A stretch of DNA of 64,000 bases from Antedon mediterranea (taxonomy: Eukaryota > Animalia > Echinodermata): the NCBI RefSeq assembly GCF_964355755.1, contig NC_092677.1:5726101-5790100 (forward strand), given 5' to 3'. This document shows positions 17,720 to 56,500 of this stretch, piece after piece. The notes under the pieces were generated by a model. It was given only the letters and a program-made list of their open reading frames with translations, made no database searches and was not told where the DNA came from. Numbering within the stretch: position 1 is the first letter of the stretch; each line of letters begins with the position of its first letter. A program made the position numbers and the translations under genes.

Positions 17720-17973
17720 CTAAAAAACGCCGAAAATATTAAATTGGGACAAAAAATTCACTTAATATTTTATGTGTAATGGTATCTACTGTCAGACAGA
17801 AAATGAATTACTGTGAATATTTTTAGATGATATAAACAATATTTGTCAACATACCACATAGTAAAGTTCAAGCTATCTTATTGGTTAAGTTCATTAGATA
17901 CAGGAATGCTTCGCAGATCATTCAATATTTTAAAATATTGTAGAAAAACAGATAGTATTAAAAATTGACTTAC

Positions 17974-19571: not shown

Positions 19572-20299
19572 CTGAAAACAAATTAAATGCAGACGTGTAA
19601 TGTGCTCTTTAATATTTTCGTTAATTTTGTTCACCATTAATTTGCTTTTTTGTTTCGTTTGCTGTTTCCTAAAGAAACAAATCATATGAAGTTTAAAGAC
19701 ATTTAGTATATTACTACAATCACAACTCATTATCTTTAAATAATATAGAGCAAAACTTACTCCAGATAATTAGAGCAAAGTCGTAATTCAACGTTTTGAT
19801 CTTTTATTGGCTCATCCGGAATTTGGAATAAATTATTTAACAAATTAAATGGCTCAGTAGAAAGTGTTGATGTTTCACATACCAACTAAATCCACTCTTA
19901 ATGAGTAGTATACACAAATTTCGTTAACCCAAAACTAATTTCCTCTTTTTCTAAGTTTTTAAAAAGCATTCTGAAATCATACATTTTAGGTTGGTATTCA
20001 TAAGTATACAATAGTGTTTCAAAATTAATAATACTAATTTTAACTTCTTTAGCTCAAAACTATTGATATTGTTTTGCATATTAATCAATCATTCAATCAA
20101 CCAATTAAAAAAGTAAATTTGAAGTACACACAAATTATTATTTTATCTACAATACAACGCAACAATTAAAAAATAGCTACAGCAATTAATATTATACAGT
20201 TGAAAATAAATGTAATTGATCATTATTATATAGTTTAAATTAAATTTAAATTAATCATGAAAAACAAAACATTCAATTTATAACTGAAATAATCTCTTC

Positions 20300-31862: not shown

Positions 31863-34800
31863 TTAGAAAATATGGTCACCCATCTCTAGTTTTTGTTTCA
31901 ACTGAATGTCTTTTTTTTCTTGCATAATCTCTTTGACAGAAATCAACTGCATTCCAATGCTATTCCCCTTTGTTTCTGAACAATATCCATAAACACACAC
32001 TATTCCATTTGCTTCTTCTTTCCCTTCTTTTACACTGTAGTAAGCTAGGTCAGATTCTTCTGCATTCAGTTTTTCAAGAGTACATGACTCATACCAGGAT
32101 TTACTACCATCTTCACTTAAGTGAAGTGTAAGATCCTTATCTGGTTCAGTTCTACGACTTGCTATTGCTATTTGATAGTGGAATCGATCTTTCATTGTTG
32201 GTAGGCGTGCAACACCACCCTAGATAATGATATAATTTAGGTAATAATAATAAACAATTAAAGTTTTATACACTTTAAAGGCAATTTAGCATCCAAAAAA
32301 TGGTAAAAATAAAATAAATTGATTCCGTAAGATCACCGTAGGTTAAAAATGATATGCTGCTTGTTTTAATTAAATAATTATCAACCTTCACAATTGTTCT
32401 TATTCAAACAGTCTTAAAGGTTGAGAACCTGTATTGTTGCAACAGTTTATGGACATGAAATTAAAAAAAAACACGTTACATATGACATTTTCATGAAAAG
32501 TAATGGAAAATAACTATAATAATGATTGGAAAATAACTATAATAATGAGTAGAATATAAAATGATACAATTATTTAAATAAATTAAATATTAAATATGCA
32601 TAATGTAAATGTAAATTTTTAATTTTTATGAGTTTATAACAACTAAATGTGGCAAAAATCAGTGGAACGGTTCTTTTTACACCGAATTGTCATACCATTA
32701 TATTTTTTATTTACTTATAGAGTATTGAATTAAATAAGATAAAAAAAATGGTTATTTTCTTCATTAGCTTCTTTGACAATGGACTTTACGAAACACGACG
32801 GGAAGCCACAGGACGGTGCTCATAAATAAGTTTTGCATGAGCTTTTGAAGACGATAAAGTTGCCATTTTCCTGTTTACGGAGAACGACTAGAAATAATAT
32901 ACATATAACCTTAAATACAGTTCAAATTACACTTAAACGTGAACATTTCAGAACTCTAATTATATTTGAACTTATAATTTGATTGTTAAACGACATTTGT
33001 AATAAAATTCTGCGCGGCGTTTGAATGCGAGGCTCCTAGGCTTGGAAGGCTAGGCCTATGCTGTATCACCAGAGCCAAGCGATTCAGAAGGGCCCCACGT
33101 CGCGAGACAGGGGAGGGGAGAGAGAGATACTGTCGGTCATCGTCGTCCTTGCGCAAGGATTCGTAACTAATAAAACGGCTATGTTGACTGTAGCGAACAC
33201 GGGTTATTCGTCGTCCTCCCCTTACCGTTGTGTTTTGTAAAGTTCCTATTACCTGGAGGTCGAATACATTACTAAAATAGAAAATGTTGGTACTAAGGCA
33301 CCAGGTAGGCCTATCTATATAATAAATCCTATTCCTAACACAAAGTAGTTACAAGTAGGTCTATGGTTATTATTATGGTAAAAATGTATTTGTAACAAGA
33401 TATTTTATGGCACCTGACATTCCATGTTTGCCTCTAACGATGCAAGCCGAATTGTCAAACTTTCACTATCAAATCCATCACCGTAAACTTTGAAAAAAAG
33501 TATACTGTTCTCCAATGAACAGATGATGCAAACTCGATTCGTTGCATATTCAACAACCTTATTAAACAAATAACACAGAAACTTTAAAACAATACATGGG
33601 ATCGGAATGCGTGTAAACAAAAACGTGCTATTTATTCAATAATAATTTAATTTGAAATGAAACTGTTTAAATCTAACCTGTAAGTGCTTTCCTAAGGTAG
33701 CATTTGAAGGTTTAAAAAGAGGTATCATTTTCCAGGTGTGACCACCATCAGTACTTGTTATTACCAATATTTTATCTGTCAAAAAAAATATACCACTAAA
33801 TACAGTAAAACATTTTCGATTTAATATTTTACTTTAATACTGTCACTGTCATAGTTGATTGAAATAGTAAAGTACATGTAACGATACACCACTAAGACGT
33901 TTATATTTTTTAAAATTATACGTTGAGAAGCAACTGTCAGTAATAAAGTTTATTCTAATATAGGTTTATATATCTAACAGTACCCACACTTACAGTAAGA
34001 AATTTGCGATTCAAATGTCGACCAGAATTGGTTAATACTGTACGTATTTACAGTATTGTCAAAGTATTGCAATACTATATCTAAAGGTTTTAAGTTTATC
34101 CCCCAAGGGCCCATAAATTGTTTTATACCAAATAATTATACTGGGAGTCCATTCATCGTAAATCAATACATTTGTATAAACGTATATTAAATCTACCAAA
34201 ACAGTATTTTTTTAAAAAGAAAAATCGGCCCGTCTTTAACATTATGATGCTGTACTCGAGCTGTTCAACCGGTTTTCAGCTAATAAAAACAATTATCGTA
34301 GAAGGAGAAAGGTAAATTCGAAGCATCCTCGTATTATGTGCGGGTATTTTTAAAAAAGGACATCCATTAGTCAGTGTATACCACAATCGGAAAACACCCC
34401 TATTTGCGGAAAATCGTTGAACTTAAATTCGTTTTAATTGTCAATAACTAATTATCTAACTCATAATAAATAGGGTTACTTCAGCTGGTAAAAATCAGTA
34501 CCGAAAGTACGAACCAACTTTATACCATCGAGTGACATTCTAGAAGTAACGCACGATTTACCGAATTTTGCCCATGCGTAAATTTATATTATATATTAGT
34601 AGCAGCAGATATATATTTTTTTTTGTGAAAGAAGTATTGGTTTTTGTTTGTTTTCATAAATAAAATATACTTTCAATTTGTGGCCTGATTAAAATAAAGT
34701 TTTTAAACGGACAGTCTAATTTATTTTTAATTATTATACACATTCTAAGACAAATGATAATCATTTTCACAAGTTGCATTGGAAAACATGTTATAGATTT

Positions 34801-37800
34801 TGCCTTTCAATTCATGTTCATCTTCCCTCTTTGTTTTCGAGATCTTAAATTATTTATCTTGAATTATTTATTCATTTTTAAATTAAAAATGTTGTATATT
34901 CATATAAAGTTAGAGGAAATTTAAATCCTCGATAAGAGTTTGCCTTTCAATAACATTTAGACGTAATCTAATCTTCGAGTCTACATGCTGTGACATTCAA
35001 ACATAATTATTCTATTTAGCATTTTATTTTAAAGTGGCTAATATCTATACTACTGTTTTTTTTGTGTCTTGTGTGAGTTCATCTCACGTTTATTTAAATT
35101 CTCATTGGTGATATATTATATATACATATAAGTACATTTGTGACAATTAAAAGTAAGTGTTTAGAGTAGTTTAAAATCTATACTAATTGTTAAAGAAATC
35201 AACAACTAATAATATATGTATACTAGACCTACGCGGTCGTATGTGCCAAAGTGCCCGAATGATATGTAGGTAGGTATGTATAGGCCTAATGTTTGAGAAC
35301 CTCTATTAATTTACGAGTTACTTTCTTACGGTCATCAGTTTTCAGTTTCACAATTCCCGCAATAACCACTTTTCCTGAATCTAAACATACACCATTACCA
35401 AGGCCTGAAACAAGTTCATTTAAAAAAGGTAATTTCATTAATAAACAATAGCAATAATAAAACAATAATTAGTTATCACCTTTTCATAATTACAAACCAA
35501 ATTTACGTTTTAGAATTTCTACTTGAAAGCGTGCCAAATCAAGTTGTACTTCAAATGGTCCTTTCCAATTCACTCCATTATCATCGGTTTTCATCCTTAT
35601 TATCTTCCACTCTTTGGTTTCAATATTTTGTCTAACACATATTAGAATCATCTTTCCCTTCGTCTTATCTGTCACAATTGGTACTAGGTTCTTAAAGCTG
35701 TAAATTAAATAAAGTCAAACAAATATGTTTCATTTAAATGTGAAGAACCATCAATAAAATTCCAAAATCTAAAGGTTGCGGTTTTCCTTCAATCAATACC
35801 AAATTTAAGGTATTGTGACACTTTTGACGGTTTTTTTCTTTCAATTGCAGAAATACTGTAGGCAAGTAAAATAAAACATGCGAAATACATTTCTATTACT
35901 TCAATAATTAACTCCCAATTAAATCTCTTAACAAAAGTAACTTATTTACTGCCTATAATTATATATCCCTAATAATTACTTTGTATCGTTTTCCTGTAAA
36001 ATCACCCGTGTTTTTTCCCATACAATCAAACAATTTCCGTTCATCTTTCCTCTTCTCATTATTACATCTGAGTTGTTTTTCTCACAAAAGACGATAAAAT
36101 GAGAATTTATGAAGACTACTGCCGAGTGTCTAAAAACAAGAGAAAAATTATTGGCCTATATTAATGATACAACAAAATAAGATAAAAAGAAAGTTGAAAA
36201 ATAGTTTCAAAAGTGTATATAACCAGACAAACCTATAAACCACTAAACAAAAAAATACACCTATACACCCATACACCTATAAAAGTGACAACAAAATGCA
36301 TGGATCAAATCTTAATACTTAATAAAAGAATCTATAATTTTGTTCAGTACTTGTGTCAAAAAAAATGTGAAATAGTAAATTTTTAAGCTACACGACAAAT
36401 CCTAAAAGCTACGAAAAATTATAAAAGCTACAACAAATTATAAAAGCTACGACAAATGTTTATAGTTTTGCTGTGATGCTTGAACGTGTTATTGGCACTA
36501 ATTACAGGCTACTATATTTAATCGATTGTGCAGTTTTGAAGGATTTATTATTTTATATTATATATTATTAAAACATATTTAGGCAGGATAACAAAATTCA
36601 GAAAAGAAAAGATCACAAAATTTCAACTACAACAACATTAAACAAATACATGAAATAAAAACAAAACAAAAACAATCTGGGACTATAGAACATTAGTGAT
36701 AAAACGTGTGGAAATACAATTATTTTTTTAATAAATGCTTTTTATAATTAATTTTAGAACTATTCACAGACACACTATCTATTTTACAGGGATCTTATTC
36801 CTAGTAATTTGGCATAGGTGGTATAACATTCAGAGAAAGGGAATATCCCGTAGAGTATCCATGTTGGTCGTAGACCATTTCAATATCGTTGTACAGACGT
36901 GGAGGTGCAATACCATGTGTACATAATACAAGCTACAGCGTAGCACTACGTTCATCTACCTTTACCTTTACCTTTATAATATCAATCCCACGATAGTTCT
37001 TGAAGTCAAACTTATTTTTTACAACTCGAGCGGCACGTTTTTGTAACCTTAAAAGAATATTTCTATTTTTTTGAAACGTAGTTCCCCACACAGAGATAGC
37101 ATAGTCCATACAGAGCTGGATTACACTGATATATAGCATATTTAAAAGAGATTCACTAAGCGTTACAGACAAATTATTTAGGATGTTGATTTTGTATCAT
37201 ATAGTTTTATTTAATTGCCGGATATGAGCATTCTAATTTAGATTCTCATCAATTTGAAGTCCAAAATAACGGATATTCTTCACGACATCAAAGGTTTCAC
37301 TACCAACATGAATATGAATATTCAGAGAGAACTGAGGGTGAACATTACGATTCATAATTAACATAAATTTAGTTTTACCAGAATTTACTCGTAATTTATT
37401 ATGATTATACCAATTTCCAACATCTATATATAAATTTACGTAAGGGCAAAATTCGGTAAATCGCGCGTTATTTCTAGAATGTTTACTCGATGGTATATAA
37501 AGTTGGTTCGTACTTTTGGTACTGATTTTAACCGCCTGATGTAACCCTGTTTACTAATTAAATTGAGTTCGATAATTAGTTATTGACGATTAAAACGAAT
37601 TTAGGTTCAACGATTTGCCCCAAATAGGGGTGTTTTTCGATCGTGGTATACACTGTCTAATGGATGTCCGTCTTGAAAAATACCCGCAGACGATAATACG
37701 AGGATGCTTCGCATTTTCCTATCTCCTCCTACGATAATTGTTTTTAATGGCTGAAAACCGGTTGAACAGCTCGAGTACAGCATCATAATGTTGAAGACAG

Positions 37801-39649
37801 GCCGATTTTCTTTAAAAAATACTATTTTGATAGATTTAATATACGTGCAATGCCAACTCCATCTATTCCACCAGCAACTGACTACTCCTGGCAACTAGAA
37901 GATGGTCAGTTGAAGCCGGTATTTTGCAACAATCCACCAGCACCAAAGCTCTTCTAGAAATTCGTCGATGTACCTGCAATGGTTCATGTTCAACAAATCG
38001 CTGTAGTTGTAAGAAAAACAACTTGCTCTGTACTGATGCATGTGAGTGCGGTGATGGATGTGAGAATACAAAGGACTCGAATGTAGAGCTAGTAGACGAT
38101 ATCGATGAACTTTATTGACTGGAGAGGGTAATCTGACTATATTCAATTTTTATGGTATGTATTTATTTATTATAACAGTTCCATTGGTGATTTGAAATAT
38201 TGATTTTGGAACAAGGAATATCATCAACACAACCACAAGTACCGGTACAAGTTATAAACAATACTAGACAAATCTATAGTCTCTCAGTTGTGGATATTAC
38301 ATGCATTAGGGCAAGAGGTCAGATATGGCATTTATGTTTGCTTTAAAACAAAACATTTAATTACAGTAAATATAAAAAGGCATACTGCAAACAATTTGAA
38401 ACAAATTTCAAGTCTGTGTGACCATTAGTTACCGAGATATGATGATAGAAGGTCAAAGGTCAAATGGTCAGAAATGGCATTTTCAGTCATTTCTGGTCAA
38501 AATATTCCATTAGAGTAAATAGAAATATGTACCTTACAAACATTTTAAGATTAAAACCAAGTCTCTACGATTAGTGGTTGCCAAGATATAAGTACTTGAT
38601 AGCATAAGCGGCCATTTTGAAAAAGCGCCCCCAGCGAATGAAAAACGCGTTTAGAATTTGGACAACAAGTTGGAAGTTGTTCGTTGTGATGTCCTTGATC
38701 ACTTAAAAGTGAAAAATCAAACTTGGCTAAATATATGAAGTAAAATACAAATGCTGCCTGACTAGTACGTACATTTGAAATCGCCAGTTTTTTAACGCTG
38801 AAATTATTTATGTATTCGAGAACCATCTGTGGGCACGACCTAGATGGTACGCGAGCGAAGCGAGCGTACCATCTAGTTATTCATAATTGTTTGCAGTTTG
38901 ACGTTGATATTTTCCACTGCATTTCCAGTAGTGTAGATGACAAAATTATCTGCAAAAATACTACATGATCCTGGGTATACATATTGAGGAAGGTCATTTA
39001 TTAATAGTAGAAATAGAATTGGTCCAAAGACACTACCTTGTGGTATGCCAACTTTGACTTTTGCTTTTTTAGATAATTTATAATGACATTTAACTTTTTG
39101 TTTACGCTGGGAAAGATAACTTTTGAACCATTTAATTTCATTACCTTTTAGCCCATAATTCTCCAATTTAGTAAGTAGAATTGTGTGATCAATGGAGTCA
39201 AAGCATTGAGATATATCGAGAAAACAGGCTCCAATCAATTCACGGTCATTTACATTTTCCATCCATAACACGATGGAGGCAAGTAACAATGGAGTGGTTC
39301 TTTCTGAACACATATTGATCCACGCTTATGAAATCATTTTCATTTAAATAATTAACTAACTGGTTTTGTATTAATCTTTCAACAATTCTTGAAATATGGC
39401 ATACCACAGATATCGGTCTATAGTTACTCGTAGTTTGCTTACATCCCTTTCCTTTATATATAGGTGTTGTTTTAGCCAGTTTCCAGTCATCTGGCACAGT
39501 ACCTGAATCAATAGATAAGTCTATTAACGAGGAAAGGGATTTTGCACTAATTGAATTTTGTAAGGGAATTGGGAAATACATGAATTAAACTGGTAATTAC
39601 AAAATTTACCTGTATGTGTTACTATCATCAATTAAAGGGAACACCTCAT
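31863..39649 (-). CDS. Sialidase-like (GH33/NEU) domain of copy C, predicted catalytically inactive
   Basis: Open, phase-compatible exons 39649-39610 (YEVFPLIDDSNTYR), 36129-35980, 35697-35507 (TDDNGVNW), 35404-35330 (LGNGVCLDSGKVVI), 33775-33678 (STDGGHTW), 33557-33414, 32219-31863. Intron positions match copy E. Confidence 0.8.
33787..34590 (-). mobile_element. Helitron-like H1 copy, 3'-truncated
   Basis: Reverse complement of the H1 5' region (compare 37430-37830 and 1-540). Confidence 0.75.
36600..39581 (-). mobile_element. CR1/L2-type LINE RT fragment, degenerate, interrupted by a Helitron
   Basis: Motifs PDDWKLAK.TPIYK, NYRPIS, FLDISQCFDSIDH, GIPQGSVFGP, FADN, DYAISVWG, LQKRAAR. Confidence 0.88.
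37423..38876 (+). mobile_element. Helitron-like H1 copy with both termini, carrying a foreign internal segment
   Basis: 5' TC..., 3' hairpin ...CTAG, inserted between A and T with no TSD. Removing it restores the LINE frame (TIMN-NVGNWY). 37850-38766 is non-H1 sequence with a Cys-rich CXC-like ORF remnant. Confidence 0.85.
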
Positions 39650-39779
39650 CTAAAAAAAAAACGGTTTGATAACAATGTAATGTACCATAACATAAATAAA
39701 GGATACTGTGAGTGAAAATAAATATATAAAAAATAGCTTTGTTTTAAAATTTACACTGTATACACGATTTAATAAAAAT

Positions 39780-39829
39780 GATGATAATAATAATACGACG
39801 ACGACAATAACAATAACAATAATAAACAC

Positions 39830-39870
<41 letters not shown>

Positions 39871-39871
39871 T
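39780..39871. repeat. (AAT/AAC/GAC)n microsatellite
   Basis: Directly visible trinucleotide run. Confidence 0.95.
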
Positions 39872-40085
39872 TGTGGACGTATCGTGCAAACAAACAAAAG
39901 TTGAACGTAAACATTAAGTATACCTTAGATGCATTTTACCTAGTATTAATAACAACACAAAGTGTTACTAGAGAGGACACTATTACAAATTGAAAAAAAA
40001 ACGCAAAAACGATACTATATTTTATAATATAATTTAAGTATAAAAAAAAAAAAAAAAAAAAAAAAAATAATTTAAGTATTATAAA

Positions 40086-40410
40086 TTAGTATTTTTTATA
40101 CAGAATACAGAAATGTATTGGTACAGGATTTTGCATAACATTTGTCAAGAATGTTGTTTTGTCTGGTAGGCTTGTCAACAAACTGATATTGAAACATGAG
40201 TTTAGGTCTCCGATAATAAAAACAGGTGCATCTGGGGATTCATTTTCGATTTCACGTACCCTCATCGAAATCCCCTTTGCAGAATCCTTGTTGTTTGCTT
40301 TGTCATGAACGTATGTCACTATAACATATATCTTATTAAATTATCGGGGAAGATAAAACGGTCTTAGACCGATTGTAATTAGCTCCATATCCTTATGGAG
40401 ACAAAAGGAA
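40086..40410 (-). mobile_element. Rex1-like LINE endonuclease fragment
   Basis: ELITIGLRPFYLPR..PDAPVFIIGDLN, similar to 9988-10848. Confidence 0.7.
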
Positions 40411-40610
40411 TTAAAAGAAATACTTACATCGAAAACGTAAGTGCCCTGATGGCTTATGTTTCATATCTAAAAGTAATGAATATATCCTTTTAAATTACAG
40501 ATTAATTAATAGAAAAGAATAACTTTTAAAACAATAATGCATTTTTTCTTTTCATTTTAACATTCTTTTAAATGTAAAATTGCAAAATTTCACTAGCCTA
40601 GTATACTTAC

Positions 40611-43600
40611 ATGTTTCACAAACTTGTAGTTGGCATTTTGCGGAATGAATCACATTTTCCTCTCCTTCTATTACGCATTGGCAAAGGTAGTCACCGGCAT
40701 CAGAAGTTGCAACTTCAGGAATTTTAAGGACACCACTTTGCTTATCTGTATTACATTCAACTTTGAATTTGTAAAATTTATTAACATCGATTTTTTCCCA
40801 TTTTTTACATTCCAATTTATAAAAAATAAATTCTTTAATTTGTTGTTGTATTGGTGACATATCAAAATACATTTTAGCAGTTTTTCCAGCAACATATGAG
40901 TTCACGTTATTTCGAACAGGAGCTGTAAACAATTGTAAAATAAAGAACTGAAATAAGTTAAATATATACAACTAGATTATAATTCCAATTATAATATATT
41001 ATATTCAGTGATTAAATGAGATGTTTAAATACAATAAATCAAGCACATGTGACGCTGTAGTATGTACATTTTCGAGTATAATTATAGGCCTAACTACTAG
41101 CCGTATTTCATATTAATAACGATTATGACTGAGAATAAATATAAAGTACCATCACATCACTACGACGTTTATATTTTTTTGTAACTATTAATTATATTAA
41201 TTAATACAAACGTAGAGAAGGAACTGTGTAATCAAGTTTATTTGTATATTATTTATTTATAATCTAATAGTAGTGCCTACCCACACTCACAGTAATACAG
41301 TTTATTTTTGTATATGTTTATATATCTAACGGTACCCACACTCTCAGCAAGAAATTTGCGATTCAAATGGCGATCAAAAGTGGTTAATACGTATTTGCAG
41401 TATTGTCAAAGTATTGCAATACTATATCTAAATATTTTAAGTTTATCCCAAAAGGACTCTCATAAATTTACCTGTTTGAGTGTTGTGCGAAATAATTTTA
41501 CTGGGAGACTGAGAGATTGGAATGTTCCATCTCAAATCAATACATTTGTATAAATCTATAAAAATAGTATTTTTTAAAGAAAACGTGTTCAACAATATGA
41601 TTCTGTACTCGAGCTGTTCAAATAGGTTTCAGCTATTAAAACAATTATCTTAGAAGGTAAATGCGAAGCATCCTCGTATTATTGTGTGTGGGTATTTTTT
41701 TTAGATGGACATCCATTAGACAGTGACCATGATTGTAAAACACTCCTATTTGAGGAAAATTGTTGAACATAAATTCGTTTTAATTGTAACTAATCAATTA
41801 TCTAACTATATTTAATTAGTAAAAAAGGTTACATCAGATGAAAGGGTAACATCTGATGTAACCTTGTTTACTAATTAAATTGAGTTACAGAACTCTTTTC
41901 ATGGTTAGGGAAAAGTGATCATAATATAATTCTACAAGAAACGCATAGTGACGTAAACTGTGAAAATCACTGGGTGTCTAAAAGAGTGGGGGTCTAAAAT
42001 CATTTTTAATCATGGTAAAACAAATAGTGCAGGGATTGCCGTATTGTTTAAACATAATTAAGATCTTGTTGTAGATACAATTGTGGGCGATGAACATGGT
42101 AGATTTGTTATTATAGATATACATATTGAAAGCAAGAATTATACGCTGGTTAATGTATATGCCCCAAATAAGGATGACCCTAATTTTTTTATTCATTTGG
42201 CAGATCAAATTAAAGAATTTAAAACCGAAACTATCATCATTGGAGGAGATTTTAATTGTGTTTCGAATATAATGTTGGATAAAGAGGGAGGCAGAAAAAG
42301 TACAAATAAAAAAGCTCGTCTTGAAATTTTAAATAATATGGATGAATTTAATTTAACTGATATATGGAGAAATCAAAATAAAAATACAAAGAAATTTACA
42401 TGGCGATCTACCGGGCTCCCTCCTATTCAATGTAGATTAGATTTTTTTCCTTATCTCAAAACACCTGTTAAATGTCGTGGAGCATACTGATATAAAACCG
42501 GGTTATAAAACTGACCACTCTAAAATCACTTTATCTTTCAATCTTACAAAACAAGGTAGGGAACCTGGGTTCTGGAAATTTAATTTTTCACTACTGAATG
42601 ACCAGCAATATGCTACCGAAGCGAAATTACTAATTTCCAAAAACTATCAAAGAAAATGAAAATATGAATCCTGGTCTGTTATGGGATTTTATAAAGTTCC
42701 AATTGAGAGAGTTAACAATACGCCACGCAAGTAGAATAAAAAGACAGAGAAATGAAAGGGAGAAACAATTAAATGAAGACATAGAGAAACTAGTTAGAAA
42801 TGAAAAAGGAACAATTAGAAAAAATAAATGAGGTCAACACAAAAAGCGCAATGATTAGATCTCGTGCCAGATGGATAGAGGAGGGAGGAAAAAACTCAAC
42901 ATTTTTTATCAATCTAGAAAAGAATAATTTTAACAAAAAACATATCACAGAACTGATAGATAAAAACAATGGAAGAAAAGTAAAACCACATGACATTCTA
43001 GAAGAAGAAAAACAATTTTATGCTGATCTATATAAATCTAGATAAAACGAGGACATTTTGGACAATAACTTCTTCCCTGAAGAAAAAAAGGTTGTTCTCA
43101 GTGGAGAAAAAAGTCTAGTTTTTGAAGGAGAGCTAAGCTTAGAAGAATGTTGACAAGCACTGGACGCTATGCCAAATAATAAATCGTCTGGATCAGATGG
43201 TTTTCCTGCGGATTTCTATACATTTTTTTGGCAAGAAATCAAATCTGTTGTTGTTAACGCAATTAATTGGGCATTTATAAAAGGAAAAATTAGCTGTTCA
43301 CAAAATAGAGGTATTATTACCCTGCTCCCAAAAAAAGATAAAAACTATCACTGCTAAAAAATTGGAGGCCTATTTCCCTTTTAAATACGGATTACAAAAT
43401 TGCTACAAAAGCGATAGCTACAAGGCTTAAGAAAGTTCTCCCCTTAATAATAGATCCCGATCAGACCGGCTTTATGAAAGGGAGATACATCGGTAACATC
43501 CGATTAGTTTTGGCTACATTACACAGATTGTGAAAAAATAACATGTATGATTCTTGCTTTGGATTTTGAAAAAGCCTTCGATAAAATTGAATGGAAATAT

Positions 43601-45899
43601 TTAGATAAGGTTTTATCGTATTATAATTTTGGGAAGGATTTTAGAAAATGGATAAATGTGTTTTATACCGGCGCCTGTAGCTGTGTGATTAATAATGGTT
43701 ATTTGTCTATTTTTTTAAATCTATCAAGAGGTCTCCGACAAGGATGCCCTCTCTCTCCATACTTATTTATTTTGTGTGCCAAAATATTGTCTTCTTATAT
43801 TCGCCACAATCCAACAATTAAAGGTGTTACAATTAATAATCAAGAAATTAAACTAATGCAATATGCCGACGATACTGTTGCCATTCTCGATGGTTCTAAA
43901 GAGTCTATTTTGGGTACTATGAAGTTCTTGAAAATTTTTGCTAATATTTCTGGATTAAAAATAAATCAAGATAAAACACAAGTGATGTGTATAGGATCGG
44001 ATAAACATATACTAAATACTAAATAAATTTGAAGAGGATAACAAACTAAAAAAACTTACTTGGACAAAAGGTCCGATATGGTTACTCGGAGTAAAATTTA
44101 CACGCGATCCTTCGGATCTGTTTACTCTGAACCTATTACCTCAGCTTGACAAAATTAAAACGCTTACTAACATTTGGTCAGCAAGAAATCTCACCCCAAT
44201 TGGCAAGATAACGATAATTAAGACTCTAATAGTGCCCATGCTTACTTTCTTGTTTACTGTTATAACCAATCCACCTATATCATTTTTTAAAACATTAGAT
44301 AAAATTCTGTACTCTTTATTTACCGAATGTTGCCCTTAGGTATATTTATATATAGATACTTTATTTATTTATTTATTTATTTATTCTGGTTTATTAAAAA
44401 CAAAGACATGGCAGTACAAAACTGAATTGCGTCCAGGATACATACTTAATATATAATATGCCATTTACATTTTCAATTTCTGAATATGGTTTTGTTTACA
44501 TTGAAGTACAATTTTTGCAAAATATTAGGGTTAGATTATGCTATACTAGGTTATATTCAGTTACATACGAATACGTATTGTGTTAAAAATTAATTTCTAC
44601 ATACCTTTAACTGTTAACTTTTTACAACAGCTGTATATGTTCTGTCTTCCTTCAATTTCCACTTCACATAAATATGTTCCTTCATCTTCAGGTACAACAT
44701 TCATGATTTCAAGGTTTACCTTGTCCTTATCCACAAATTGATAGCGTGACGTTGGATCAGGTGATTGTGATGATGTCAGCAGCTTCTTTTCTTCCCCTTC
44801 AACATTTTTATACCAATTGATATTGGATATTTTTGCAGAATCATCAAACCATTCTATATTTAGTAACAATTTGACCCAATTCACATTCGCTTTAACAGTG
44901 AGATGTATTTGGATAGCATCTATAAAACAATTTTGGAGAAACAAAACATCAGATTAGCAATTTTATTTTTCGTACTACTAGGCAACATAAACGAGACCAA
45001 CAGATATAAGTCGCGTGCTAAAACGCATAGTGATACCGGACCGACAGACCGACCGACCGACCGACATAGTGAACTATAGAGTCGCGTTCACGCGACTAAA
45101 AAGGAATAATTGCAATAGGCTTACATTATTACCAATATATTTTCATTAATTAATAAAACAATTGTAAAATTGTAAAACATAATAAAATAAAAAGGTTCAT
45201 CCTCTTGACTGCATGCTCTATTAAGTGTAAATAAAATTTAAAGTAAAATCACCTTTCTTAACTGTCAGCGGTGTAGTATGCGTCAGTTCTTTTTCTCCAT
45301 CAACTGGCTTCACTTCACATTGATACTTGCCACTATCACCAAGTACAACATTCTTTATCTTCAAAGACAGAGTGCTATTTTGGCAGCTTTTTACTTCAAA
45401 TCTAGGATCTTTAGAACAATCCTCAATCTCTGTTGTGCCATCTTCCTTAATCTTCTTCCACTTGTAACCTGTTAATGGCATATCTGAAGGTCCATATCTG
45501 CACTTCATTTCAAAATTACTTACACCACGTTCTGTTGAGTACTGTGGATTTACCACTTTAATCCCTTAACAAAATGTGAATATTTTACAATTTCAGTCCC
45601 TTAAACATAAAATTACAGATACACATTTGCAATGGAATTTGCTGTTTACACATTTTTATTATAAGAATCTTGGTTACTAAACTATTTTAAAGCTAGCATG
45701 AATGAAAAAACTACCATATTGATTTTGTGTTATTTACAGATTGATTAAAATCAATAAAACTCACAATAAACAGATAAATTGGCGACACCTTGGCGATGAT
45801 GCTTTCTACTGGGTTTTATTTTGCAGTTGTACTTCCCCGAATCGGATTTCAATTGATTTGAAAGTGTTAATTTGATGCTTCCTCTACCATTTGTAAACA
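40611..45899 (-). CDS. Ig-domain exon array of copy C (half-domain + three Ig) upstream of the pseudo-sialidase
   Basis: Phase 1-1 exons 45899-45765 (FTNGRGSIKL..DSGKYNC), 45564-45253, 44919-44605 (DEGTYLC) and 40922-40611 (DAGDYLC). In frame with the exon at 39649. Confidence 0.85.
41150..41887 (-). mobile_element. Helitron-like H1 copy; its 5' tip reappears at 44318-44357 beyond a LINE
   Basis: Reverse complement of H1, with a short inverted piece at 41850-41887. tttaccgaat..tatatataga follows the LINE. Confidence 0.7.
41888..44317 (+). mobile_element. L1/Tx1-clade LINE ORF2 fragment (APE+RT), frameshifted
   Basis: Motifs LQETH, NVYAPN, GGDFN, RLDFF, TDHS, WKFNFSLL, GSDGF, WRPISL, LDFEKAFD, GLRQGCPLSP, QYADD. 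Confidence 0.92.
44990..45103. mobile_element. Short (ACCG)n-core element (HINE/DINE-1-like)
   Basis: Same family as 7745-7860. Confidence 0.6.
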
Positions 45900-48471
45900 C
45901 TTCAAAGAAAATATCTCAATTTTAAAGCAGGACCTACAATCAATTAATTTGTTATCTTTGTTTGCTATTCAACAGAGAAAAATATTATTTTCTAGTGTAT
46001 TACTATATTATAATTTTTCTTTATTTTTCGAGACAATTTTTCAGTATCAATGTAGAACTGCTGGTTTTAAAAATGGATTGCAGAAATACATGAAATAAAA
46101 GGAAACAAACAGTGAAATAATACGTTTTAATAGACCAGTGATTCACAGTAAGCAAAAACACATGGGTCAAATAAATTCACTTAATGAGTATACACAATTT
46201 GTACTAATATGTATACTTTGATATTCAAGAACATACATAACCAACCCAATACTTCAGAAACTAATTCACTTCACCTTTTCTGACATAAATATAAATTGGC
46301 TAAAATAACATTGGTGTTTGTAAATGTCATATTGGATGAAGATGGTTATTACTTACTTGAGTAAGAAGCTTCTGATCTGTAAACAAAAAAGTAAATCTTA
46401 AAACTTCACATGATCTTTAATTATTTATAATAAGTTTAAAACATACTGTATTTGCAAAGGGCTTTAATAAGAAAAAAAGCTTTGTTTACATGCTACACAC
46501 AACTAATAAAGTATAAAGTATATAACTATAAAGTAGAAATGGTATAATAAAATATTAAAATGATATGTCTATGCAGTGACTGGATAGGCATACTATTATA
46601 TAATTATTAATAATTAACTATTATAAGTTTTATTTCCTCTACATAGAACGTTGTTTAATGCAATTATAAACCAAAGAGTTATGATAATAAGCAGGCTAAA
46701 ATCAATAGTTGTTGAGATAATAAGATAAACTGTTAATATGGTATGAATGGCATGGAATGATATATAATATAATTGTTCACAAAATAATATCTAACGAATA
46801 TAGCATAGATTAATTGTGTTTTAAATAAATTAATGAAAGAATATAATAAAGCATTTACTAAATGGAAAACACAAAGCCGGTGTTATTGTCTGTAGAAAGT
46901 GTTATAGAATCTTTGAACAAAACTGATTTCATTGAGAGAAAAAACGATTTTAGGTACAATTACTTATGATAGAATCAGTGGTATGATGATGACTAAATTT
47001 CAATATTAATATTATCATTTACTTGTTATGATAATTAATATAGTGAAAATGATGTACATAGTATAGTAGTGTAATAATGAATAGTATAACGAATTTAGGA
47101 CAACAGCAAAGATTATTAGCATTAACTTATGAATATCAGAATATAGAATACATACATAGTAAAGATGGTGATGGTAAAATGCAATAAAATCATTAGGCCT
47201 AAACCATAAAGATTTTGCTACAAGTTTGGTTTTGCTAGTTTGTTTTAATTATTATTTTTACACCACAGACAGATTCTTTAAGATTGTATAAAAGCAAAGT
47301 GAATCATACGAATCATTGTATGATTTTTGTGAGATCTAGTGGAATTGCAAAACCACTCAATTTTACAAGCTTTGAGTTATATATCTTTGTTGTACTGGTC
47401 TCACAAAGTTATAGTACAGAAAATAGAGATTTGATGTGAATATGTAAAGTTTCGTGTTTGTAAAGATGAAACGACATTTACCTAAAACTAGCTTTAGTGT
47501 ATATGTAATTTTGCTTAAATTCTTTTAAAGCTCTATCAGAAAAATAAAAATTAAACAATCTAAACAAAATAAAATTTGCTGCACTATTAACAAAATAAAA
47601 TAACATTACCTTTCATATGAGTCTGTTGCTAGAACAATAAATAAAAAAATCTTTATCTTTAAATATGTTATGGTTAGCTGTGGAGAGGACAGACTCTGTT
47701 TTTTGATTAACTGTAATTTTTGTATGGTGTAAGTTTGAAAATTCTTTTTCTAATTATTGACAATTAGCTTTATGATAAAAAATTATGCAATATTAGTGAT
47801 AATAACATTTGAGAGTAACATTTATCCTTGATTTGCTATAATCATAGTATAAATACCAATTTTTTTTGCATATTTGAATCAATCAATCAACCAATCAATC
47901 GATCAGTAAATAAATTTGAATAGATAGTAGTTAAGTACTATTTCATACAACACAATAATCACAATAAAAATTCCATATATGTAATATAAATAATAAGAAT
48001 TACAATCATTTATATTAAATTTTATATTTCCTGCTGTTTCTCTTTTTTGACTGTTATCCATTTCCCTTGTATGTCAGACCTGCCTTGCTTTTGTTTCATT
48101 TTCATCGTTTTGAGCTTTGCCCTTTATTTGACATTTTTATGTGGTTTTAATAAATATACTATTATGAATTAATGAATATTATATATTTTAAACTGAACAG
48201 ACAAAAATAGCCATTGAGGTCATATTTCAAATTACTCACGATTACTCTTTGATTTTTCAAGATTTAGTTATGTATAGTACAGTTGCATAGTTTTTCGTAA
48301 ATAGGCTACTAGAAAGTTTTTCTACTTTACAAATTACCTAGGATGACGAATAGTAAAATTATACATCTAAATAAATTACTTTATAATACTATGGATAACA
48401 GGAGGACCTGATTTTATATTTACTATTTCAAAAACATTTATTTTTGTTATTATCTAATACACCTGTATTAC

Positions 48472-49448
48472 CTTTCTTTACAAGCCTTCCCGTGGATACT
48501 TCCATATATGGTGTTTGTTGTCCATTATGTATAATCTTTCCTGAAGTACAAGCTTGTAAATCAAGATCTGCATATTGAATCTCTTTATTCTATAAATCAT
48601 CAAAACTAATCAATACATTAATACATATTCTTAAAAAACAGTTAATACAATTATTGAACCAGAAATAAAGCAATTAGATAAATAACTATGATTTAACGTA
48701 TCAGTTTCTAAAGAGTTTGTAATTCATTTTTTTATATATGTATTTTCTACAGCATATTTAGCAAGATTGCCTAAACATTAGAAATACCTTGTATTTATCT
48801 TCTTCAAGTTTAACCTTTGATGTTCCTATTGTACCATAAAAACAATCAATTAAGAATAACAAACATTATGGATAGGAAATTGCAATTGAGATTTAAATCA
48901 AAGATGTTGGGTTGTGTGACAGAGTTTGTTATTAACTAATGCAAAATTCATTTAAAATAGCTTTGGATATGTTCTTCTGATAAATTGAAAGTAACCCAAT
49001 AATTATCAACCTTGCAAAGAAAGAAAGAGTATTTTTAAATAATGATATAGGCCTAGATTATACCTTTCTTGATCAGCCTTCCCTTGGATAATTCCATATA
49101 TGGTGTTTTTCTGTCATTGCTTATTATCTTTCCTGAGGAACTGGCTTGTAAATGAAGATCTGCATATTGAATCACTTTCTAATAATAATCATAATCTAAT
49201 CAATACATGTTACCAACATATTTTAAAAGAAAATTAGCATTCATTCAATTCTAATAAAAAAATCCATACTTAGGGCCAACATAGGGAAGGACCTCTGAAT
49301 AAAAAAAAAGTCACAATTGGTAGTACCCTGTTTGTTAAACTTGCTCAAAAATATTATTTTAGGTTAATCGATTTTTATTAACATTTGTTTTCCTTAAAAT
49401 TTAAAAATACCTTTCTTTTATCTTCTTTATGTTTAATTTTTGACGTTT
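48472..49448 (-). CDS. Duplicated ITIM/ITSM exon cassette of receptor C
   Basis: Exons 49448-49411 (ETSKIKHKEDKRK), 49178-49064 (IQYADL..TPYMEL), 48825-48788 (GTSKVKLEEDKYK) and 48589-48472 (IQYADL..TPYMEV). Phases alternate 1-0 and 0-1. Confidence 0.78.
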
Positions 49449-50536
49449 CTATAGTACAATAAACAAGCTAATACATTAAACGATTACAAATTATTATTAT
49501 ATATATTATTAATATGGTAAACTTTAGAAATACTTTTGAGATGTTTGAGAATATGACATGTTATTAAATAATGCAAAATGCATTTTAACGCAGATTTATA
49601 TTCTCTATGTTTACATTCATTTTAAAAGAAACAAAATATGTTGCTTTTCAATTATGCACTTTAAAACAAAAAAGAGGGTTTCTTGTAAAATGAAACAATA
49701 AAATAAAACTTAAATAAAACATAAATAAAATATAATTTAGATTTATCTGTACTACAAACGTATATAAAGTACACAAATATATAAAACATAGATAATTAAT
49801 TATAAATGTGTTATCTAAAACACATGTCAAATTAAACTAAAAAATATTAACTAAAAATATGTACTAAACAAAATTAATAAATCTACTAAAACGTACTATC
49901 GTTAACAAATAGAGCATGCATTTCTGAGAAATAAATGACAATTAATTCTTGGTTGAGTTCAACATTGTTTCAGGCATGCATTCTGAAATGTACTGTTATT
50001 CAGAATGATAGAAATAAAAAGGTTAGAAGAACTAATAACATAAAATTAATTTATTTGCAACACAAGCTTTACTTTAAAAATACGATGTAAAATCGTTTTT
50101 AGGAAAGGTATAGCATAAATGCTAAATTAAAACAGGTTTATTGCTGGTGTTCTTCCTATTTTATATAATTTGGCGTTTGGTAAAAGGAACTCAATTGAAT
50201 TAAAAAAAAAATCCATATTTGAACTTTTATAATATCAAATAATCTTACACTACATTGTAGACACAGGACTTTTTAAATGCAATCTGAGTAAAATTCCATC
50301 AACTAATTTTACTAGGTTTCGTAGCCTGGTTCTATCGGTTTATACTAGGTCAAGTTTTTTTTCCACAACAAACTCGTATTACAAAAACATTTTAACAACG
50401 ATGAGGTGTAAATTAATAATAAATAAATAACTAAATAATGAATAATCACAATTGAACATACTCTCCATAAGTACGTGGGGGGCGTAACGCATACTATTAT
50501 TGTTAGTGAATGAAAGCTGTTATGAAAATTGTATAA

Positions 50537-53500
50537 TTAAATGATATCACCAATGAATTTTCTTCCTCTTTTATTAACTTTTGCGTAAATAACAGGATCT
50601 TCCGTAACACATGACATAGGTGTACTACATTTTACACTTGCATAGACTATTTCCCGCTGTGAAAATATTGTTATCATTTAACTAAATATGTTATATAATT
50701 AGCCCACGGCGCTTTATTCAAGAAAAAGATTAATTACAAAATTTGATTGATTTATAATTTGATTTATTCGATTTTATATATTCAATTCTGGTGATATCTA
50801 ATTGATTCAAAGATTTTAATTGTTATTTAATAATTGTTAAAAAAAATTGTAGTAGAAAAGTACTAGTTACAAAACAACAACAACAAATGTAATTTTATTT
50901 TTATAGCAATTCAAATAAAGATAAATTCTTACTGTGTGACTGATGCTGAAGTGTCCTCCTTAATTTAACCAAGAATAAGATAATTACTTCTAATAATAAA
51001 ATACGGTTTCGATCCAAGTCGGCCCTAAACCGTCTCGGCCAAAGTCAAGTCGGCCCCAAGTCAACTCGGCCCCAAGTCAACTCGGCCTCAAGTCAACTCG
51101 GCCTCAAGTCAACTCGGCCTCACGTCAACTCGGCCAAAAAATAATCGGTCAACTCGGCCCCGTTAAAGTATGGAACGCAAAAAGTGCAAATGAAGGGGAT
51201 TGATAAAATAATATTTCTTCACAATTTTTTAACTATGAATAATTCTGACTTTTAATGAATATTATTATTTAGACAATAATATATTTAGCAAAAAAAATAG
51301 GAAGGATTTCACCAACTTTCCTTTATTTACGTTTAATCAAATTTCGTAGCTGAGCCTCCCTGCGCGTTTGCCAGCTTTTTCGATATCTACAACTGCTACG
51401 TGTTTTCGCTGACCAGGGGATTCCTCTTTTTTAAAAACGCAAATCATGCACAAAAACGATGTACGATCATTTTTTCTATGGGGTGGAACGTACTAGGCCT
51501 CCGTCTTCGATTTCCTAAAATACGGTACCTGCACGTGTTTTTTGTAACACGCGGGTACTTCTATTCATCGGCAATGAGTTCATTTTTTTATATGATATTA
51601 TATTTTTTATTCATTTTTTTTAAAACGTGGATAGTAAGAATCGTAATAATATTAAGCACTTTTTGCGTTCCATACTTTATTGTGGCCGAGTTGACCGATT
51701 AGTTTTTGGCCGAGTTGACGTGAGGCCGAGTTGACTTGAGGCCGAGTTGACTTGAGGCCGAGTTGACTTGGGGCCGACTTGACGTGGGGCCGACTTGACT
51801 TTGGCCGAGACGGTTTGGGGCCGACTTGACCTGCACCCTAAAATACATCTAATAATAGCATTATTTGCTCAATAGAAAAAGGTTCAAGGGAACCTAAGAA
51901 TAAAACTGCACTTGCTTGTTTCATGTAATTAACATTAATACAAACACTAAATTAAATTTTGTGATAATATATTGTTTTTTTTTTTGTTTCATATATTATT
52001 TCCCAATACATAAACTGTTTATTGATTAATTGATCGATTGATTGATTGGTGATATGAGGTTTAAATGCAATAATTAATAAATTATTAAAAGAATGGAAAC
52101 TTTACCTTTGTCTTTAGATGTTTTTTGTTCTGATAAAAGTTGCCTCTCTTCAACATAAGCAGAGCTTGTCTTTGAAAAAAAGCAAAGAATATTAAAGAAT
52201 GATTCAAATAATGTATACTCTACATAAAAAAAAAACCTATTATATAATAAAATACCTATGGAAGGTTCATTATTAGATGCAGTTGATTGATTAGCATTTA
52301 CCTTTCAATCTTTTAGTATAACTGTATTGTGAAAATATAATGTTGGGTTTCCTTACCAACACATTTAATATGGTCGAACTTAAAGGTGTATACAACCATT
52401 TAGAACTGTTTAGTTTTACATTTTAAAAGTTGTAGTGTAATCTGTTCATTGAAAGTGTATCTGATTTTAGTGAAGAATAATTCATGTCTCAAAACATAAA
52501 TTGAAATAATGTTCTAAATCAATGAAATCTATGAAAAACCCAGCTGAAAGAAAATTGATTGGGGTCTTGTTTAAAATATTGAGGTTTTCTTCTTTTGTCT
52601 TTGTAATTTAAACCAGAAAAACTAATAGAAGAAACAAGAACTTGTTCATAACAAACCTGAACTTCTTGTGCAGTAGCTGCTGCTTCAGTTGCTTCAGCCT
52701 GGTTAGTAGGTGAACTTGATTTAGTTACAACAGGGCCCTCTGCACCATCAGGAACATCTCTTTCATTCGCCATCATTAATTGATACTCTTCTCCAGTTGT
52801 ATTACCATTTCTGTTAAGACAATAAAAACTATTACACTATTCAAAGTATTGCTAAGATACTACCATTTGTAACACCACTACCTTAATAGCAATTTTTAAC
52901 CATGCATGTTTAACAATATTTATCATGTATTACAAAATGAAAACGTTTGTATTAAACTCACCTGGAGCTTTCATGTTTCTTTTTATCTATATCATTGTAA
53001 ACAACTGTTTAAATAAAACAAGAAACAAAATGTAATGAAGACAAATTGGTATTAAATTTAACATTTGAGGCATTGACTGACATACAATGATGTATTCTTC
53101 ATGCAAAATTCACACTATGAAGTAAAATAGTTCAATCTGTATCTATAAAATACATAAAAGAAACGAAAAAAAAACAATGTATATATAAAGGACCCTTGGA
53201 AACAAGCTTTTGGGCTTTTATGTGTATGCTTTTGGTTTTATTTGTGTAAATGACCAACAAATGTTTCTTTACCACATTTGAATTATTGCATTTTATTGAC
53301 TATTTAATAAAAATAAATATCATCAAATACAGAGTGCAGAATAATGATAGTTCTTAGACAATCAATATAACTTACCCGATTTGTATTCAATACAAAAGAA
53401 TCCACAAAAGTAAAGACAGCAATAACAGACAAACTGACAGACTGATTTCCAACTACTGAATTGCTGTTGATTTGAACCAAGCACTTTGTCTTCTTTCTTT

Positions 53501-56500
53501 ATTTCAAATGTCTTGAACCTTGCAATACTTGGACGGTATTTAAAACTCATCACAACTGGTTTACCACCTTCAACTGTCACTGTATTAATACCTTTATTGC
53601 TCCACTCAATATTCTTGTAATACATGAAATCTAAAAATTAAATAAACAAAACTAAACTGGTAAAACTAGTATTTTTTTATTTTATTAATTTAGTCCCCGA
53701 AATATTTATTTACATGAAATATTCAATAAAACCTACAGAAAAAGGAAATTCAGAAAAATAGAAATGTTTGAAACATAACTCAGAACATAATAGTATAACA
53801 TTGAAGCGTTATTATGAATATGGCATGTAAAATATAAAGGCACTATTAGCTTAATAAAATAATTATCTTTACGCCATGGTTTCCTCGATATTTCCGTAAT
53901 TCAATAAGAATTTTACTTACAAACAAGAAGCAGTAACCATAAGAACAAACCAACAATCAAAACAATCAGGATGATGTGCAATGAACCCGAACCTGTTTAA
54001 AAAAATACTATTTCCAATATTACAGTGTAAAAACAAATGGATACAGAATTACAAATATAATTTTACAGATATTTAAACCAGAGAAAAGTAAAATTACTGT
54101 AATTATTTCACTTTCTCTGATTTTAAACTAATATTATAATATTATTGTTTAAAAACGCTGGCTAAAATCGTTTCATCTTTTTTTTAAATAACACAAAGCA
54201 AATGTAATAATATAAATTAATGCTGCTATTATGCATTCTTATTAAACGCAAGCAAGTGTAAGAAGATTGGGCTGAAATCAAATTAATTTACATATTTCAA
54301 CATTTATTGGCCCCTTTTGAAAATAAAGCAAGGCAGAAAACCCCTATTAATAATAATAATAAATGTCGTTACAGTTTTAAAAATTAATGGCGTTTGACGG
54401 ACTATAAAGCATCATTTTCTAATTATGCAGTTACAATTTGTTATAAACACAAATCATAAAATACATGATGGTATTGCAGGTTCAGTAACATCAAAGTTCA
54501 TTATTGAGCAACGTCATGCTACAGCTACTCTGTACGACTGAGAGCTGTCTGTGTTACGATGGTTTAGACGGTAATCTTGTTTACATAAATTCTGTTTTGT
54601 TCGATAAAGGAATTAGTACATGGTATGCACTGCAATGTAGTACAAGACGAGGTTTGTCCAAATATGTTTTCAGTTAAACTGAAGTTAATTAAATACCGCG
54701 TTAAAGATGTATTGTCCCCCAAAAGAATGAAAAATGAAGATTAATTAAATCAGACTTTGAATAGGTTTTTTTGCAGTTTCAATAAAGTTCATCACTTCCG
54801 TAGAAAAAAAATGAAAATAAATTATGTTTTCCGTTATAAAATGACAAAATAAATGGTAAAATTTAGCCAAAAATTCATTGGCTGGCAGCCAATTTGACTA
54901 TTTTTTTGCAGGTAAGAAATTTTTTTTAAAATCTAATTTTTGGTCAAAGTGGATAACTATTATGTGAAATTATAATGGTATATTCAACAAAAACATTTTA
55001 CATAATTATTTTTTTCAGGGGACAATACATTTTAAATAAAAAAACACCTCCTTAAAATAAACGCCTCTATTTAACATACATAGGCCTAAACATTTAAACT
55101 GCATAATGCAATTGGTATAATTACCTGGGACACAGTTACCTAGTGTTGTTGTACCATTTAGCTTTTCATTCTCTGCATAACATGTAAGACTTGTTTGACA
55201 TGTCTCATCATTAATTACTATAGTTGCTGTATTTTCTCCTTTCTTAACCACTTCTCCATCTTGTAATATCAATACTGATGATAGCTTGGGATAGCCCTCT
55301 GCTGTACATGTTGCAATACCATCTTCAGATGTAAAAGTAACAACAATAACTGAAGCGACAAAATCAGTTAATTTAGCAAAATGTATATAGATTGTGTAGG
55401 TAAATGTCTGTAATAGTATTACATTTTTTCTTAAATGAATTATAGATAACATACATTACATCATGTTATAATACATTTACAAAATCAGCAGAAGTGCATA
55501 TGATGGTCCTCTCTTTACTATGAATATACATTTTAACAACTAGGATATGGAAAACTTGACTTGCAAGAAATTTAGCTCACACTGGGAGTTGACCAGTTAG
55601 GTATGTACATTTTAATTTAAAAATTACAAAACCTGGTGATAATGTTGCAAAAAACTTCACGATTTGTCAATAAAAAATGCATGTACAAGCTATTAATTGT
55701 CATGTACTGTTAATTGTTAAGTAAAGTAATGTTTACCTACAATATACTATCAACTGTATTTCAACACTTGTTTTAGCATCCTCTCCTTTAAACTGATCAC
55801 TTTCTGCTTTACATGTATATATCCCACCATCTTCTTCAGTAGCAGATTTAATCTTAAGAACTGACTCTGTACTGTTATTGGTAATCTTATATCTAGAAGA
55901 ATTGTTGGTGTTGACTGTCTGTCCATCTTCATACCAAGTAATGTGAGGAATAGGATCACCATCAGGTTTACTACAAGTAAAGGTCACTGGTTGACCTTCG
56001 TAAACTGTTCTATGTGAGGCAGAAAGAAGTGGATGATCCAAATCTGAAAAACATAGTTTTTGAATTTAGTATCTGTTGTGTAATGTAGGGATTTCTGAAA
56101 AAAATCATTTATTTGTATTATAATCTACTTATAGAGGAACAGTAATAATATTATATGATTGAATAAAGTGTGAATATAATACATTAAATTGTCTTGTCAA
56201 TGTTTATTAATTTTAAATAAATAAATACCATAATTGATTTAACGAGAGCATTTTACCTATTTACTAATTATTTTTTTATGTACATTACGTGACTACTGTA
56301 ATTCTGAATAAATTGAAATTCAAAATAAATTAATAAACCACTTATACCAATTAAACAAACTGTATTTAAAATTAAATATAACTAGAGGGTGAGCGTGCTT
56401 CGCTCGCTTCCCGTCTAGGAAGTGTAGACGATGGTTCTCGGAATGATAATGACTCTGGTAAAAAGTTTTAGAAGGACATTCTGGCTTGGACGATTTCGAT

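Follow-up and report, generated by a model that had tools for sequence, protein, structure and literature searches.

The stretch analysed here is a 64,000-nt window of the Antedon mediterranea genome, to which all coordinates refer. It consisted of animal DNA of 30% GC carrying several related copies of an immunoglobulin (Ig) receptor gene together with retroelement remnants. One of these, copy D, was rebuilt exon by exon on the minus strand. From the first Ig exon, starting at 63217, to the TAA at 31863, a chain of 28 exons, all with AG/GT borders, comprised 1358 codons, and the only stop was the terminal one. The exons from 63500 to 31863 very probably form one gene with one open reading frame, and the predicted product is a receptor whose tail continues past inhibitory tyrosine motifs into further Ig domains and a sialidase-fold propeller. 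The initial annotation had placed the run-on at 31863 to 53992. The run-on was upheld, and the gene was found to begin well upstream, with a signal-peptide-like exon (63452..63500) that resembled the N-termini of the homologues P0003 and P0010; the start-codon exon lies further upstream.

Copy D showed the predicted layout of a type I receptor, with a signal peptide, an Ig ectodomain and one transmembrane (TM) segment. The ectodomain contained a V-like Ig1 (62906..63217, weak V-set Pfam match), an I-set Ig2 (55741..56043, Pfam E 1.5e-17) and a short Ig3 (55125..55349), which had two Cys and a homologue match and no Pfam match. The TM exon (53921..53992, hydropathy 3.2 over 19 amino acids) was followed by an exon (53376..53630) encoding the A'-C' strands, or N-half, of a predicted split Ig domain and then a Cys-rich hydrophobic string, and by three low-complexity linker exons (53004-52962, 52810-52657 and 52169-52106) that were present in all TM-bearing homologues. 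A cassette of six exons (50958-50933, 50656-50551, 49448-49411, 49178-49064, 48825-48788 and 48589-48472) carried immunoreceptor tyrosine-based inhibitory motifs (ITIM) and switch motifs (ITSM). Two micro-exons, of 19 nt (47610..47628, phase 1 to 2) and 20 nt (46357..46376, phase 2 to 1), led to the D-G strands, or C-half, of the predicted split Ig (45765..45899). Three Ig exons came next, one with the canonical Cys pair (45253..45564, Pfam V-set E 3.6e-8), one without the B-strand Cys (44605..44919, E 3.6e-9) and one without the B-strand Cys or the C-strand Trp (40611..40922, E 2.3e-5). After a 39-nt linker exon that is optional for the frame (40428..40466), seven exons encoded the pseudo-sialidase (39649-39610, 36129-35980, 35697-35507, 35404-35330, 33775-33678, 33557-33414 and 32219-31863). 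A candidate exon at 32888 was unneeded in the chain.

The details on which the run-on had been proposed were confirmed. The last ITIM/ITSM exon ended AG/gtaata in phase 1 without a stop, 45899 was a phase-1 acceptor, the chain stayed open through the half Ig, the three Ig exons, the linker and the seven sialidase exons, and inspection by eye found no B-strand Cys in the domains at 44605 and 40611. One protein of the order three Ig, TM, tyrosine motifs, several Ig and pseudo-sialidase was supported by the open chain, by a conserved micro-exon junction and by independent RefSeq models that run from TM to sialidase or from ITIM to Ig.

For the junction between the cassette and the Ig block, all chains of at most two AG/GT exons of 6-60 nt between 48472 and 45899 were enumerated and scored against junction peptides from six A. 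mediterranea genes. Out of 41066 chains 3122 were in frame and stop-free, and the pair 47628-47610 plus 46376-46357 ranked first among these 3122. Two tiny exons that match homologue peptides and phases would be hard to account for unless the junction is used, and copy D probably makes its link through them. Of the micro-exons suggested earlier, 46376-46357 was kept and 46299-46275 was rejected because the route through 46376 and 46299 ranked only 1760/3122; the exon 47628-47610 had been overlooked. A direct splice from 48472 to 45899 ranked 2967/3122, and the chain 48472 to 46376 to 45899 hit a stop.

The ITIM cassette ran from phase 1 to phase 1 and is skippable in frame. Motifs of the form (I/V/L/S)xYxx(L/V), the consensus used for ITIMs, were present downstream of the TM in copy D, and the cassette held four ITIM-consensus and two ITSM-like motifs. 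It aligned to the tyrosine-motif block of P0008, with the ITIM motifs conserved between both. P0006 and P0008, isoforms of one gene, kept this block and then the same micro-exon peptides, and P0005 skipped it. In RefSeq, the isoforms X1-X3 XP_071958880-82 differed exactly by the ITIM cassette, and X1-X3 XP_071947493-95 by one junction micro-exon. RefSeq alternative isoforms generally rest on transcript alignments. Within copy D, the last two ITIM/ITSM exon pairs (49448-48472) were an internal tandem duplication of about 80% identity, so that motif number changes via exon duplication. The region of the block also contained an inverted-repeat element with 16-bp tandem units (51015-51830). Two of five listed sequencing runs were aligned to 40300-56300; both resembled DNA, and the joints displayed, 236 others apart, were no splice joints, so that these reads do not bear on expression. 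In one of them, X2, summed contig depth was 10-50x higher over the ectodomain, the post-TM N-half and the first full post-TM Ig than over the cassette, which hints at many paralogues and a copy-specific cassette, although such a depth does not measure copy number.

The only close named homologues of copy D were uncharacterized A. mediterranea RefSeq models, none of them identical to it. Searches with the last sialidase exon for longer proteins gave 4 of 51 candidates, those with the TM-tail-Ig region for proteins of similar length 5 of 3693, and those with the TM-tail region for shorter proteins 3 of 1520, none of which ended at the tail; together with cluster members, 15 A. mediterranea proteins were collected. 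All 11 TM-bearing models (about six genes, judging by accession runs and isoform labels) ran on into the half-Ig. P0003, P0004, P0011 and P0013 extended from the TM to a complete sialidase domain, P0010, P0014 and P0015 ended in Ig domains, P0009 was a truncated isoform, P0012 an Ig-only fragment, and the number of Ig domains varied across the models. XP_071958824, XP_071958844, XP_071958647/8, XP_071957667/8, XP_071958880-82 and XP_071947493-95 belong to the same family and share the exon order of D, at 55-68% identity over the best-aligned 5' and junction segments; unlike D, none of them joins the ITIM cassette with a complete sialidase, and they are unannotated. At residues ~585-650 of P0013 and P0009, an 8-residue Ser/Pro/Thr repeat occurred in about nine copies inside a post-TM Ig, where D has a single unit, making this the second case of an Ig domain with an inserted loop. 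A wider search (1.84 billion representatives, E 0.001) gave 168 matches, and among the best 150 were relatives at 35-40% (P0018, P0019 and P0021) and the distant Ig-plus-propeller proteins P0066 and P0119, at about 25% identity. P0119 consisted, in order, of a TM, an Ig N-half in which the Cys and Trp were canonical, a disordered stretch of 135 residues containing tyrosine motifs, an Ig C-half, an Ig and a pseudo-sialidase. An Atlas feature search with P0119 gave no usable match.

The first post-TM Ig domain appears to be split, with the Cys string and the ITIM block lying between its halves. A'-B-C-like strands open the exon that follows the TM, and the exon at 45899 holds only D-G. Against a profile built from 41 intact post-TM Ig domains, the N-half covered positions 4-38 and the C-half positions 64-103, and the joined halves scored 18-24 bits compared with 10-19 bits for the C-half alone. 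Structure predictions were uneven. In the AlphaFold2 (AF2) model of P0005, made from an 11-row alignment, both halves had a predicted local distance difference test (pLDDT) value <50, and a complex prediction of the two halves, in which the alignment was not used, gave a score of 0.23, the mark being set at 0.34. The Atlas model of P0008 aligned with one V-set protein of 147 amino acids over 99 residues spanning 341-630 (TM-score 0.51), which is more than either half contains. The AF2 model of P0119 had confident strands at 41-92 and 234-279 around a disordered 96-228, and it matched two-domain single-chain variable fragments over ~360 columns. We infer that the two halves may fold together and close a disordered motif loop.

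On a membrane-insertion scale, the Cys string scored +0.7 to +1.8, a marginal value, compared with -6 to -8 for the TM, and it was flanked on both sides by Lys/Arg. N-glycosylation sequons were in clear excess in the ectodomains (40 versus 19.7 expected, reached in 0/500 shuffles), were at chance in the post-TM Ig domains (36 versus 35.3; 237/500 shuffles) and showed no clear excess in the propeller (39 versus 31.8; 49/500 shuffles); the sequences counted are related and hence not independent. The marginal insertion score, the basic flanks, the Ig halves on either side and the lack of a twofold sequon excess beyond the TM led us to read the string as a putatively palmitoylated segment that stays at the inner leaflet and does not span the membrane. 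The post-TM part would then probably be cytosolic.

The family BNR_2 matched four of four homologues at 47-70 bits (cut-off 31.4), and single sialidase exons of copy D gave weak BNR matches in Pfam. With a seven-sequence profile the best PDB match was human NEU2 (E 9e-16), and the P0119 model aligned to NEU2 with Z 31.9 and a root-mean-square deviation of 2.9 over 318 residues, bacterial NanA being tied within 1. The homologues and the P0119 model thus showed the six-blade propeller with Asp-box repeats of the GH33 fold. In GH33 enzymes catalysis relies on an arginine triad, a Glu and a Tyr nucleophile. When copy D was compared with NEU2 and intact relatives, the first Arg was kept, the second was Ser and the third Asp; the catalytic Glu was replaced by His and the Tyr nucleophile by Glu, both residues being present in P0032, P0041 and P0049. 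Neither the triad nor the Tyr nucleophile with its partner Glu was therefore intact in D, and the earlier label "pseudo" was justified. The first Arg was kept in all pseudo-sialidases covering that region, the Tyr position varied among relatives (E, C, S, N), and the blade-1 loop with the Asp acid/base was shortened, a nearby Asp aligning loosely. Judged by these residues, the propeller is very likely inactive as a catalyst. In a quick tree of 104 of 108 rows (three short rows and the truncated P0009 dropped, copy E left out), which had long branches and no named NEU, 13 pseudo-sialidase rows (support 92) joined the intact P0032, P0041 and P0049 (98) and P0071 and P0112 (99), so that within this tree their nearest relatives were intact animal-type sialidases.

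A second copy, E, lay at 14125..24656 on the minus strand and comprised a TM, the split Ig, the Cys string, a decayed ITIM block, three Ig domains and a pseudo-sialidase. From the TM exon at 24656 to the stop at 14125, its 16 exons gave 902 open codons if the ITIM block is skipped, with one atypical donor (GTGTGT). Three of the five ITIM remnants carried stops in the frame of D, no micro-exon pair was evident in copy E, and between 31863 and 24657 no ectodomain exon could be located. The exon order previously given as identical in both copies thus held only from the TM onward. Copy E is either like the cassette-less homologues or a 5'-truncated copy. The ratio of nonsynonymous to synonymous divergence (dN/dS) between D and E was 0.86 in the TM part, 0.77 in Ig and 0.65 in the sialidase, with dS rising from 0.08 to 0.49, which may reflect weak constraint or diversifying selection together with a mosaic history. 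As a speculation, the phase-1 Ig3 of D could splice in frame to the TM exon of E, giving one ectodomain with two alternative tails.

Further copies were seen near the start of the window. On the plus strand, 4045-5790 contained another three-Ig ectodomain (Ig1 ~4045-4376, Ig2 4708-5010, Ig3 5135-5359) with a different TM-like exon at ~5700-5800; tblastn found no split-Ig or sialidase exons after this exon, and the copy is predicted to be the same ectodomain with a different tail. A remnant of that alternative TM and tail lay on the plus strand at 28864-30811 (72-89% to 5743-7424), starting mid-TM and containing a stop; its position between D and the headless E suggests a rearrangement breakpoint. 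On the minus strand, 1851-1133 held a signal-peptide exon and the Ig1 of one more copy, running off the window, and ~1208-1133 was a short duplicate of the 3' end of that Ig1 exon. Decayed LINE-like (long interspersed nuclear element) reverse-transcriptase/endonuclease remnants, identified by eye in translations, occurred in introns and between copies at 8563-11415, 36936-39584, 41981-43400 and 56950-61600.

Copy D shares with the ITIM/ITSM receptors of the Ig superfamily (IgSF; CD33-related Siglecs, SIRPalpha, CEACAM1, BTLA, G6b-B, CD22) a type I Ig ectodomain, a TM, ITIM/ITSM motifs, a tandem multigene array and isoforms with and without motifs. The Atlas feature look-alikes of the post-TM part of P0008 included G6b-B, CEACAM1-like, BTLA and CD22 clusters at 0.89, which serve as leads only. 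The tails of those receptors typically end after the motifs, whereas in D the motifs sit in a predicted split-Ig loop followed by several Ig domains and a 340-residue propeller. With the GH33 sialidases NEU2/3/4, of which human NEU2 is cytosolic, it shares the six-blade propeller and the Asp boxes; it differs in the replaced second and third Arg, Glu and Tyr nucleophile and in the fusion of the propeller behind Ig domains and a TM. Dead catalytic domains that serve for docking in a receptor tail are found in the pseudokinases PTK7/Ryk and the D2 domains of LAR-type RPTPs; these are dead signalling enzymes, whereas the dead domain of copy D is a glycosidase, which predicted intracellular Ig domains would keep away from the membrane. 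Plant NLR integrated decoys are dead or foreign domains fused into an immune receptor, and the inactive trans-sialidases of Trypanosoma cruzi are surface proteins that lack the Tyr nucleophile of the sialidase fold and keep the Arg triad. The family of copy D has no NB-ARC/LRR and has lost the triad. No description of this architecture was found in the open-access literature, judged on titles and abstract openings, subscription papers lying outside the scope. The proteins are already in RefSeq as uncharacterized models; what is unusual is the predicted intracellular tandem Ig domains, the predicted split Ig around the motifs and the glycosidase pseudoenzyme. As regards the sialidases themselves, PMC9630641 gives a deuterostome origin for the NEU2/NEU3/NEU4 clade.

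By analogy with known ITIM receptors, binding of an external ligand would lead to tyrosine phosphorylation and recruitment of an SHP-type phosphatase. The split Ig would loop out the Cys string and the optional ITIM cassette, whose inclusion or skipping would, as in paired receptors, decide between an inhibitory and a non-inhibitory form. In the least certain step, the Ig rod would hold the propeller off the membrane, where signalling or cytoskeletal partners would dock on it.

Overall, we favour with moderate confidence a type I receptor with a cytosolic split Ig and ITIM loop, an Ig rod and a dead propeller acting as a dock. A number of observations weigh against it and feed the alternatives. 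The homologues are predicted gene models; among those found none unites ectodomain, ITIM cassette and complete sialidase, the ITIM-bearing gene (P0005, P0006, P0008) stopping in the third post-TM Ig, and P0001, P0002 and P0007 (three accessions) are Ig-sialidase models without a TM. Between the receptor tail and the Ig block, where the initial annotation saw no separate start, an in-frame Met arises as 46357 joins 45899; P0007 begins at the matching Met, and an internal start may be used there. Two adjacent genes, or mainly two transcripts, could be read from this: a short ITIM receptor ending at ~48.2 kb, where a good phase-1 acceptor at 48192 leads to an immediate stop and AATAAA stands at 48128 (at chance level in DNA of 25% GC), and an Ig-pseudo-sialidase, soluble and cytosolic, that is transcribed from an internal promoter. 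The fused RefSeq models would then be chained predictions or rare read-through. We regard this reading as quite unlikely, since every TM-bearing model enters the Ig block rather than ending at the tail, the micro-exon peptides upstream of the Met are conserved, and the half-Ig at 45899 would have no strands A-C if the post-TM exon did not complete it. The topology is also open to objection. The 19 Cys-rich residues after the N-half reached a Kyte-Doolittle value of 1.7-2.0, within TM range, AF2 placed a low-confidence helix in them, the canonical Cys pair is kept in several post-TM Ig domains, and the propeller sequons were slightly over chance. With a second TM helix at this place, the Ig rod and the pseudo-sialidase would be extracellular, forming a lectin-like or adhesion module, and the tyrosine motifs would be non-signalling. 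This is unlikely, as the split-Ig models work only if the segment has both its ends in the same compartment, the segment has basic flanks and a marginal insertion score, the post-TM Ig domains show no sequon excess, the ITIM motifs of D are conserved in P0008, and P0119 has a single hydrophobic segment only.

For the split itself, the N-half alone scored weakly (3.7-7.6 bits, the 99th percentile of 1200 shuffles being 5.8), and the N-half of P0119 had no detectable sequence match to that of Antedon, so the two splits may have arisen separately; shared ancestry is nevertheless likely. As to the propeller, the profile that matched NEU2 included one intact sialidase, and P0002 alone, searched against PDB at E 0.001, matched no sialidase, only Ig. 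A role as a dock for a host protein, rather than a decoy or a lectin, stands at about an even chance. Within the same gene and topology, the dead sialidase could instead be an integrated decoy or sensor that imitates a host sialidase, or that binds a microbial product inside the cell, with binding switching the ITIM output. The tandem multi-copy array, domain shuffling and variable Ig number would agree with this, as would the intact animal-type sialidases as nearest relatives, the greater divergence of the 3' part relative to the 5' part and the high dN/dS between D and E, a ratio that fits fast immune evolution and equally weak constraint or a decaying copy E. We consider this role doubtful, because the propeller is kept in the very distant P0066 and P0119, as would suit a fixed module better than a decoy open to swapping, none of the models seen has another integrated domain in its place, and no ligand or effector is known. 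Finally, the propeller might retain glycan binding or an altered activity, for example towards crinoid sialic-acid variants, in the manner of the inactive trans-sialidases. The conserved first arginine and the intact fold of the P0119 model are consistent with this, as is the high sialic acid diversity of echinoderms noted in PMC9630641. With two of the three carboxylate-binding Arg, the Glu and the Tyr replaced and the Tyr position variable, it is very unlikely.

Our verdict is that these genes form a real, unusual receptor-pseudoenzyme family. Read as a cytosolic-tailed receptor with a dead propeller, it appears to break two expectations, that receptor Ig domains are extracellular and that sialidases are enzymatic. 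The split Ig would carry signalling motifs as a spliceable loop, and the dead NEU2-like propeller offers a test case for non-catalytic roles of the sialidase fold. A bolder and improbable idea is that these are old echinoderm inside-out sensing immune receptors, in which the split intracellular Ig clamps a spliceable ITIM loop and the dead sialidase, placed as decoy or sensor at the tip of the intracellular Ig rod, opens or closes the clamp when it binds; if true, animals would have in such a clamp-sensor family a counterpart to the integrated-decoy receptors of plants, on an IgSF scaffold. Crinoids, whose immune receptors have hardly been described, are the earliest-branching living class of echinoderms, and an ITIM family that is multi-copy and evolves fast would provide an entry to self/non-self recognition in these animals.

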